Source: Escherichia coli (lineage in GTDB: Bacteria; Pseudomonadota; Gammaproteobacteria; Enterobacterales; Enterobacteriaceae). Taken from it: a stretch of DNA of 30,752 bases. Below, one piece after another: positions 8,194 to 9,306 of the stretch. Position 1 is the stretch's first letter, and each line of letters begins with the position of its first letter. The DNA lies in NCBI RefSeq assembly GCF_003334315.1, contig NZ_QOWR01000055.1. One strand, written 5' to 3'. A model generated the notes under the pieces. It made no database searches and was not told the origin of the DNA. It saw only the letters and a program-made list of their open reading frames with translations. The translations under genes and the position numbers were made by a program.

Positions 8194-8856
8194 ATGACCA
8201 TTACGTCTCTGGATGGCTATCGCTGGCTGAAGAACGATATTATTCGCGGTAATTTTCAACCGGATGAAAAATTACGAATGAGTTTGCTGACATCGCGTTA
8301 TGCACTTGGCGTTGGGCCGTTACGGGAAGCTCTTTCGCAACTGGTGGCGGAACGGCTGGTCACGGTGGTGAATCAAAAAGGGTATCGGGTGGCGTCTATG
8401 TCAGAGCAGGAGCTGCTCGATATTTTCGACGCCCGCGCCAATATGGAAGCGATGTTAGTGAGTCTGGCGATTGCCCGCGGTGGCGATGAGTGGGAGGCAG
8501 ACGTTCTCGCAAAAGCGCATCTGCTGAGTAAGCTTGAGGCCTGTGACGCCAGCGAGAAAATGCTTGATGAGTGGGATCTGCGTCATCAGGCGTTTCATAC
8601 GGCAATTGTGGCGGGCTGTGGTTCTCACTATTTGCTGCAAATGCGTGAACGGTTGTTTGATCTGGCGGCGCGTTATCGATTTATCTGGCTGCGGCGAACG
8701 GTGCTTTCGGTGGAAATGCTGGAGGATAAACACGATCAGCACCAGACCCTGACTGCGGCGGTACTGGCGCGAGATACCGCGCGCGCCAGTGAGTTAATGC
8801 GCCAGCATTTACTGACGCCAATTCCCATTATCCAGCAGGCGATGGCTGGCAATTAA
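8194..8856 (+). CDS. csiR: GntR-family transcriptional repressor CsiR
   Basis: ORF 8176..8856; ATG at 8194 preceded by caggag RBS gives 220 aa (MTITSLDGYRWLKNDIIRGNF...). Confidence 0.93.
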   Translation: MTITSLDGYRWLKNDIIRGNFQPDEKLRMSLLTSRYALGVGPLREALSQLVAERLVTVVNQKGYRVASMSEQELLDIFDARANMEAMLVSLAIARGGDEWEADVLAKAHLLSKLEACDASEKMLDEWDLRHQAFHTAIVAGCGSHYLLQMRERLFDLAARYRFIWLRRTVLSVEMLEDKHDQHQTLTAAVLARDTARASELMRQHLLTPIPIIQQAMAGN

Positions 8857-9306
8857 CTACTCTTCCGGAATACGCAACACTTGCCCCGGATAAATTTTAT
8901 CCGGGCTTTTTAGCATCGGTTTATTCGCTTCGAAGATTTTATTGTACAGATTAGCGTTACCGTAGACCTGTTTGGAAATGGCACTCAGAGTGTCGCCAGA
9001 CTTAACGGTATAAAACTGGCTGGCAGTGGCTGGTGTCGCCGTTTTCACCTGATCATCGACACTGGCAATACCGGAAATATTCCCCACCGCAACAAGGATT
9101 TTCTCCTTCGCCTCCTGACTCAGGCCGTCACCAGTGACCGTCGCTTTGCCGTCGGCAATTTGAATATTCACTTTATCGGCATCCGGTATACCGGTTTTGT
9201 TCAGATGCTCCTGCACCTTCTTCGCCTGATCGTCTTTATCGTGCTGACCTGTAACCGCGTCCCAGAGTTTTTCTCCGGCATCTTTCACAAAATTGAACAG
9301 ACCCAT
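8857..9306 (-). CDS. ygaU: Potassium-binding protein Kbp/YgaU (BON + LysM domains)
   Basis: Minus-strand ORF 8857..9333; internal Met ([18 protein letters not shown]...) at 9306 gives 149 aa; C-terminal LysM-like segment [32 protein letters not shown]. Confidence 0.9.

Follow-up and report, generated by a model that had tools for sequence, protein, structure and literature searches.

Results

Two convergent genes with directly abutting stop codons

To describe how two tail-to-tail genes of Escherichia coli end their transcripts, we analyzed the junction of csiR and ygaU in a window of 30,752 nucleotides (nt; contig NZ_QOWR01000055.1 of assembly GCF_003334315.1). In the current annotation of strain MG1655 csiR is named glaR, and kbp is the former ygaU. 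All coordinates are those of the window; an MG1655 coordinate is the window coordinate plus 2787480, an offset that was fixed from the MG1655 RefSeq record. The locus is E. coli K-12-like, and strain W5-6 matches it with 100% identity over positions 8100-9400. The following features make up the junction:

8194..8856, plus strand: coding sequence of csiR (glaR) with the stop codon TAA at 8854-8856 (list of open reading frames, RefSeq, NCBIfam NF008576)
8857..9306, minus strand: coding sequence of kbp (ygaU) with the stop codon TAG at 8859-8857 (list of open reading frames, RefSeq, NCBIfam NF008399)
8854..8859, both strands: abutting stop codons TAA/CTA with 0 nt of intergenic sequence (sequence and annotation)

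The plus strand reads ggc aat TAA CTA ctc ttc from 8848 to 8865, CTA being the reverse complement of TAG. An earlier note on this DNA had described convergent stop codons that abut directly with zero spacing, and the sequence, the list of open reading frames and the RefSeq annotation agree with this description to the base. A spacing of 0 nt is also found in the RefSeq annotation of the strains W5-6, E2348/69, S1-KEN-07-A, SCU-313, STN0717-11 and MG1655.

The identity of both proteins was verified with NCBIfam equivalog models. CsiR reached 465.6 bits with NF008576 (cut-off 218) and Kbp 234.2 bits with NF008399 (PRK11198; cut-off 134). CsiR is a GntR-family repressor of the csiD(glaH)-lhgO-gabDTP operon and is released by glutarate; the operon is induced in stationary phase and csiR is the gene immediately after it (PMC6265302). 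Within the window gabP ends at 8173, upstream of csiR. Kbp is a K+-binding protein of the BON-LysM type. The mechanically called open reading frames begin earlier than the annotated genes: csiR would have 226 amino acids from an ATG at 8176 and has 220 from the annotated start at 8194, and kbp (8857..9333) would have 158 amino acids from a GTG at 9333 and has 149 from the annotated ATG at 9306. The annotated starts of both genes are consistent with the ends of the NCBIfam models.

The csiR transcript ends inside kbp

8885..8911, plus strand: intrinsic terminator of csiR within kbp codons (terminator scan, folds, Term-seq 3' end)

Downstream of csiR the plus strand contains the hairpin CCCGGATAAATTTTATCCGGG at 8885-8905, which begins 28 nt past the csiR stop codon. 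It consists of 9 bp, including 5 GC pairs, and a loop of 3 nt, with a folding energy of -12.8 kcal/mol. The sequence CTTTTT (CUUUUU in the RNA) follows directly at 8906-8911, and the hairpin together with these five U residues has the canonical shape of an intrinsic terminator. In the Term-seq data of Adams et al. 2021 (PMC7815308, Supplementary file 1) a plus-strand 3' end is found at 2796391, corresponding to 8911, exactly at the last U of the tract. This position is located 55 nt past the csiR stop codon and within kbp. The end was called with 1697 reads and only in LB medium at an optical density (OD) of 2.0, which is consistent with induction of the csiD-gab operon in stationary phase. 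A terminator scan was by itself not significant (3 sites compared with 2.2 expected in shuffled sequences), and the case for the csiR terminator is therefore based on the coincidence of hairpin and U tract with the mapped end.

The DNA of this terminator is at the same time coding sequence. On the opposite strand the hairpin codes for P-D-K-I-Y-P-G, the C-terminal LysM motif of Kbp, and the tract of U residues derives from the preceding codons for L-K-S. The palindrome follows from the codons, with P-D encoded by CCGGAT and Y-P-G giving ATCCGG. The motif P-(D/E)-K-I-Y-P-G is thus intrinsically palindromic at the DNA level (CCGGAT...ATCCGG), and for this reason many kbp genes of the Enterobacterales possess a stable hairpin at the 3' end, whether or not csiR lies downstream; L-K-S in front of the motif yields a tract of four or five U residues on the opposite strand. 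In 14 genomes in which csiR is adjacent to kbp the hairpin has a mean energy of -12.0 kcal/mol (range -9.2 to -13.5) and is followed by U4 to U5, and the mean of 64 non-adjacent genomes is -8.5 kcal/mol. This contrast is not independent evidence, because all adjacent genomes come from three related genera. The U tract is shortened to U4 in some lineages of E. coli, in Salmonella and in Citrobacter. A further polymorphism within E. coli, 8890 A>G, leaves a G-U pair only in the csiR-sense RNA.

The kbp transcript ends inside csiR

8764..8789, minus strand: GC-rich hairpin in the 3' untranslated region (UTR) of kbp, without a U tract (folds, alignment, Term-seq)
8799..8818, minus strand: first of the hairpins in the kbp 3' UTR, GCGUCAGUAAAUGCUGGCGC, with -12.6 kcal/mol and conservation across the clade (folds, alignment)
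8331..8776, minus strand: C-rich and G-poor kbp-sense RNA antisense to csiR, with the Rho region (composition, PMC7815308 Supplementary file 2)

The same Term-seq data contain a minus-strand 3' end at 2796240, corresponding to 8760. It is located 97 nt past the kbp stop codon, within csiR and 4 nt beyond the hairpin CUGGCGCGC...GCGCGCCAG at 8764-8789 (-15.9 kcal/mol by folding), which is encoded by the csiR codons for L-A-R-D-T-A-R-A-S. The end was supported by 23751 reads in LB at OD 0.4 and by 614566 reads at OD 2.0, and it is entered three times in Supplementary file 1, which has three condition sheets. All 15 sequences compared, from Escherichia, Salmonella and Citrobacter, retain the pairing of this hairpin; one of the changes is compensatory and two are of the wobble type. 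The covariation falls within conserved csiR codons (L-A-R...R-A-S) and neither supports nor refutes a constraint at the RNA level.

Past the kbp stop codon, from 8776 to about 8340, the kbp-sense RNA contains 30-40% C and 19-24% G. This RNA, antisense to csiR, is untranslated because it lies downstream of the kbp stop codon. A Rho termination region has been identified on the minus strand (PMC7815308), with its top-scoring position at 2795811, corresponding to 8331 (score 6.6, p 1.3e-18; regions were scored in 800-nt windows). The downstream/upstream coverage at this region was 23/113 without bicyclomycin (BCM) and 367/272 with BCM. According to the authors of that study, Rho-terminated RNAs are usually trimmed by 3'-5' exonucleases.

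Some additional observations concern the minus-strand transcript and the sources used. The gene yqaE is located at 9390-9548, and the promoter of the minus-strand operon lies upstream of it at about 9604 (Conway et al., as quoted in PMC7373196). Term-seq shows a strong 'primary' 3' end of yqaE at 9351 on the minus strand, 45 nt upstream of the kbp start (27762 and 69321 reads), and part of the expression of kbp may come from transcripts that read through a leaky yqaE terminator. According to its caption, Supplementary file 1 of PMC7815308 shows each 3' end with 40 bp of upstream and 10 bp of downstream sequence; the strings given comprise 61 nt, with the 3' end at position 51 (50 upstream and 10 downstream) at both sites checked. 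The TERMITe supplements contain no entry for csiR or kbp, and nothing specific was found in the literature on a terminator of csiR and ygaU or on a ygaU small RNA (sRNA).

The two transcripts overlap and form double-stranded RNA

8760..8911, both strands: region of 152 nt common to both mapped transcripts (distance between the two Term-seq 3' ends)
8606..8889, both strands: p19-captured double-stranded RNA (dsRNA) cluster S-217 'csiR ygaU', 3' overlap (PMC7373196 Table S1e)

Having observed zero spacing, the earlier note had concluded that convergent transcripts must overlap, and it had proposed mapping of the 3' ends as a check. The published Term-seq data bear this out. Both ends, 8760 on the minus strand and 8911 on the plus strand, are located inside the partner gene, so that 152 nt are shared and termination before the partner is excluded. 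The statement that no room is left for a terminator is correct for the intergenic space of 0 nt. It does not apply overall, since the csiR hairpin and U tract lie inside kbp, and the kbp hairpin and the Rho region lie inside csiR.

The overlap also appears in other published data sets. The cluster S-217 is an RNase III-cleaved dsRNA with 149.8 reads per million in stationary phase (Huang et al. 2020, PMC7373196); it is given as 2794108-2794391 in U00096.2, and the conversion was anchored on a 20-mer at 2794362(-), which corresponds to 8860. For the same junction Conway et al., as quoted in PMC7373196, reported a convergent overlap of 412 nt (about 8585-8997) and an end of the minus-strand operon at about 8585. 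As both the dsRNA cluster and the 412-nt overlap reach beyond 8760, some kbp transcripts read further into csiR. In addition, ExcludonFinder (NAR 2025, PMC12288877) includes glaR-kbp in its set of 165 convergent excludons of MG1655, which is restricted to those detected in 50% or more of the transcriptomes analyzed. Annotation and published data demonstrate three properties of convergent excludons, namely convergent neighbors, overlapping transcripts and a duplex processed by RNase III; a fourth, the lowering of one gene's expression by that of the other, is putative for this pair. The transcript overlap of csiR and kbp is thus already known from published transcript maps.

Conservation of the junction

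Most of the region 8100-9400 is present in 5413 of 5426 complete E. coli genomes. A 176-nt region spanning the junction was found in 5415 of the 5426 and is at least 95% identical in 5412; the matches listed include 29 rows in which it is matched over its full length. The csiR/kbp junction is fixed in E. coli.

Beyond the species, a scan with Kbp using one genome per species returned 80 loci. csiR is positioned tail to tail with kbp in all 14 of the returned loci from Escherichia, Salmonella and Citrobacter, and beside kbp in none of the 66 other returned loci (other Enterobacterales and a few labelled Escherichia or Citrobacter). The spacing was 0-12 nt in 15 of 15 genomes of the three genera examined: it measured 6 nt in Salmonella arizonae and diarizonae, varied among 0, 3 and 6 nt within Escherichia and was either 6 or 12 nt in Citrobacter. 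The C-terminus of CsiR reads ...QQAMAG(N) in Escherichia and carries 5-8 extra residues in Salmonella (...GKMKPGAA) and Citrobacter (...GKLLTE, ...GKLLAEKS); aligned with the latter two genera, E. coli has a junction shorter by about 24 nt. Within Escherichia even the choice of the stop codon differs, as does the spacing (0, 3 or 6 nt). The zero spacing of K-12 is thus the extreme form of an old, shared and essentially spacer-less layout.

Abutting convergent genes are common in MG1655

The frequency of such junctions was estimated from seven 50-kb pieces of the MG1655 annotation (350 kb in total, taken about every 500 kb), in which pairs of convergent coding sequences were counted by eye. The sample comprised 54 convergent pairs, in keeping with the 704 pairs published for the whole genome. 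Spacing of zero or less was found in 11 of the 54 pairs (20%), and abutting stop codons are therefore ordinary. Exactly 0 nt separate cueR/ybbJ and ydcY/ydcZ (2 of 54), one further pair has a spacing of 2 nt, and six pairs overlap by 4 nt (pptA/yddH, yfeH/ypeB, zapC/ycbX, yccX/tusE, yqfG/yqfH and tatD/rfaH). The 4-nt overlap is the commonest class among the pairs with zero or negative spacing; in these pairs the two stop codons presumably lie within one common tetramer such as TTAA or CTAG. The abutment of csiR and kbp is an ordinary product of compact packing and does not exceed what chance or the usual packing of the genome gives.

Discussion

A model for transcript ends written into the partner gene

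We consider it likely, with good confidence, that the junction combines tail-to-tail packing with two different ways of ending a transcript: intrinsic termination of csiR at about 8911, and Rho termination of kbp followed by trimming to 8760, the complementary 3' ends being cut by RNase III. According to this model the missing spacer would cause the 3' UTR and the transcript-ending signals of each gene to be written into the coding sequence of its partner. On the csiR side ribosomes would leave at the TAA (8856), and the RNA hairpin 8885-8905 with the five U residues would then bring about intrinsic termination at about 8911. On the kbp side translation would stop at 8857, with transcription running on antisense into csiR; the untranslated C-rich RNA would recruit Rho, and termination would occur across a broad zone from about 8600 to 8300. 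Exonucleases working in the 3'-to-5' direction would trim these RNAs back to the stable hairpin 8764-8789 and thereby generate the abundant end at 8760. Both mRNAs would carry complementary 3' ends of at least 152 nt, which would be paired in vivo and cut by RNase III. The positions of the stop codons, hairpins and U tract, the mapped 3' ends, the BCM sensitivity and the capture of dsRNA directly support the corresponding parts of the model. The run-on of kbp transcription into csiR as the first step, and the order of Rho termination and trimming, are probable.

Several observations weigh against this model. The csiR 3' end is low in reads (1697) and was called in one condition only, and the fifth U of the tract is polymorphic within E. 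coli (8911 T>G, which changes U5 to U4). When the last 30 kbp codons were recoded synonymously according to E. coli codon usage, 19.7% of the recodings also yielded a terminator-like site in the csiR sense. Similar hairpins are also present in kbp genes without csiR as a neighbor, and the site may on both counts have arisen incidentally from the protein that is encoded here. On the kbp side the position of the Rho region is imprecise owing to the 800-nt scoring windows, and the derivation of the 8760 end from Rho-terminated precursors is putative. The evidence on the origin of these signals is mixed: the transcript-ending signals were most likely co-opted from coding sequence, with selection on the RNA structures unproven. 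The overlap itself is probably not a dedicated switch but, in the main, a consequence of tight packing that the cell tolerates.

Possible regulation by the overlap

A different interpretation assigns a function to the overlap. As a functional excludon, transcription of kbp in stationary phase or under osmotic stress would lower the mRNA of csiR, and of the gab operon, by polymerase collisions and RNase III; less CsiR would then help to derepress the catabolism of glutarate and gamma-aminobutyrate (GABA). Such regulation, like the transcriptional interference or antisense effect that the earlier note had raised as possible, is putative, and we regard a functional excludon as rather unlikely. 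At the mapped ends the RNA of kbp exceeds that of csiR about 360-fold in LB at OD 2.0 (614566 compared with 1697 reads), and the dsRNA of the overlap (S-217) was captured in stationary phase, both of which agree with this interpretation. It is also in line with the listing of glaR-kbp by ExcludonFinder and with the conservation of gene pair and tight junction across three genera, although this synteny may merely reflect shared ancestry. In the RNase III mutant rnc-14 the mRNAs of gabD and gabT were 4.3-fold and 2.3-fold higher in exponential phase (PMC7373196 Table S2), but this effect may be indirect and is only suggestive. In stationary phase both mRNAs were raised about 2-fold in rnc-14 (same table). 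About 20% of the convergent pairs in our sample are packed just as closely, and convergent operons overlap in 75% of cases; overlap is so widespread that it is, taken alone, no sign of function.

Alternatively, 8760 could be a site of true termination, at which the GC-rich hairpin pauses the polymerase and a head-on collision with polymerases transcribing csiR releases it, so that Rho and trimming would not be needed. The stable hairpin immediately upstream of a sharp and very abundant 3' end would be expected from such a mechanism, which has been put forward for E. coli gene pairs in convergent orientation with terminators of non-canonical form (Wang et al., bioRxiv 10.1101/2022.10.23.513370). 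Collision-driven bidirectional terminators (Ju et al. 2019; Wang et al.) resemble csiR/kbp in the convergent arrangement, in the hairpins at the ends and in a kbp end without a U tract. However, that model concerns Rho-independent sites with one overlapping hairpin region, whereas the csiR and kbp ends are 152 nt apart and have separate hairpins; the csiR side looks like a canonical intrinsic terminator, and the kbp side lies upstream of a Rho region with BCM-sensitive readthrough on the minus strand. Transcription in the csiR sense is moreover far too weak (1697 compared with 614566 reads) to stop most of the kbp polymerases, and the 8760 end is also strong in LB at OD 0.4, where no csiR 3' end was called. 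We consider termination by collision at 8760 improbable. A collision-driven bidirectional terminator was rejected as the main mechanism, as there is no shared hairpin (8885-8905 and 8764-8789) and a BCM-sensitive region on the kbp-sense strand is at odds with independence of Rho.

The third alternative is that the kbp 3' UTR gives rise to a discrete sRNA of about 100 nt (8860 to 8760), processed from the mRNA or made from a weak internal promoter, which would act as a cis-antisense or trans regulator. Table S1e of PMC7373196 quotes a minus-strand 5' end at 8860 that Dornenburg et al. had sequenced 11 times, the 8760 end is extremely abundant in stationary phase, and the segment contains two conserved hairpins. 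The position 8860 is the last base before the kbp stop codon and would delimit, together with 8760, an antisense RNA of about 101 nt opposite the 3' end of csiR. We regard this as the least probable of the three alternatives and as very unlikely: the -10 match is only 3/6 and 8860 may be a processing site, the quoted table row contains no antisense transcription start site from Thomason et al. (PMC7373196), no non-coding RNA is annotated here in the current RefSeq record of MG1655, a search of 8100-9700 with Rfam returned no family at E values up to 1, the hairpin has no U tail for binding of Hfq, and the conservation of the hairpins is explained by the protein, as they are located within conserved csiR codons. 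In a related form, the 97-nt kbp 3' UTR (8856 to 8760) would be a conserved and very abundant stationary-phase RNA, perhaps freed as a fragment of about 100 nt from 8860, and a putative cis-antisense regulator of the 3' end of csiR/glaR; this we find quite improbable. If it were true, induction of kbp, a K+ sensor, would lower CsiR and couple ionic and osmotic stress to the derepression of glutarate and GABA catabolism.

Comparison with known systems

With the convergent excludons (PMC12288877) csiR/kbp shares convergent neighbors, overlapping transcripts, terminators inside the neighbor's unit and dsRNA. The spacing is 0 nt, whereas the genes of E. coli excludons are on average 95 nt apart, and the whole overlap therefore consists of coding sequence of one gene or the other. 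Mutually exclusive expression is putative for csiR/kbp. Among convergent operons with inefficient termination, 276 of 370 (75%) overlap at their 3' ends, with a mean overlap of 286 nt (Conway et al. 2014, PMC4161252), and csiR/kbp is an instance of this class without any material difference. The kbp end resembles Rho-dependent ends that are trimmed as far as a protective stem-loop (Dar and Sorek 2018, cited in PMC7815308) in its position 4 nt past a hairpin without a U tract, in the C-rich and G-poor sequence downstream and in the BCM-sensitive readthrough; it differs in that a relation of precursor and product is, for kbp, putative. Finally, the MG1655 pairs cueR/ybbJ and ydcY/ydcZ (0 nt) and pptA/yddH, yfeH/ypeB and tatD/rfaH (4-nt overlap) have the same geometry, several of them are also listed as excludons, and only the identities of the genes differ.

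The arrangement of csiR and kbp is thus ordinary in kind and already catalogued. What can be added is that each terminator lies within the partner's coding sequence and that kbp transcription is probably ended by Rho, with subsequent trimming of the RNA. The locus itself matters little beyond careful annotation. It is a clear example, backed by data, of how enterobacterial genomes place terminators inside the coding sequence of a neighbor when convergent genes abut, and it illustrates a double use of sequence: a palindrome that encodes a LysM motif serves as the csiR terminator, and csiR codons form the stabilizing hairpin at the 3' end of kbp. If the overlap tunes the level of CsiR, which is putative, it would provide a post-transcriptional link from the sensing of K+ and osmotic conditions to the catabolism of lysine, glutarate and GABA.

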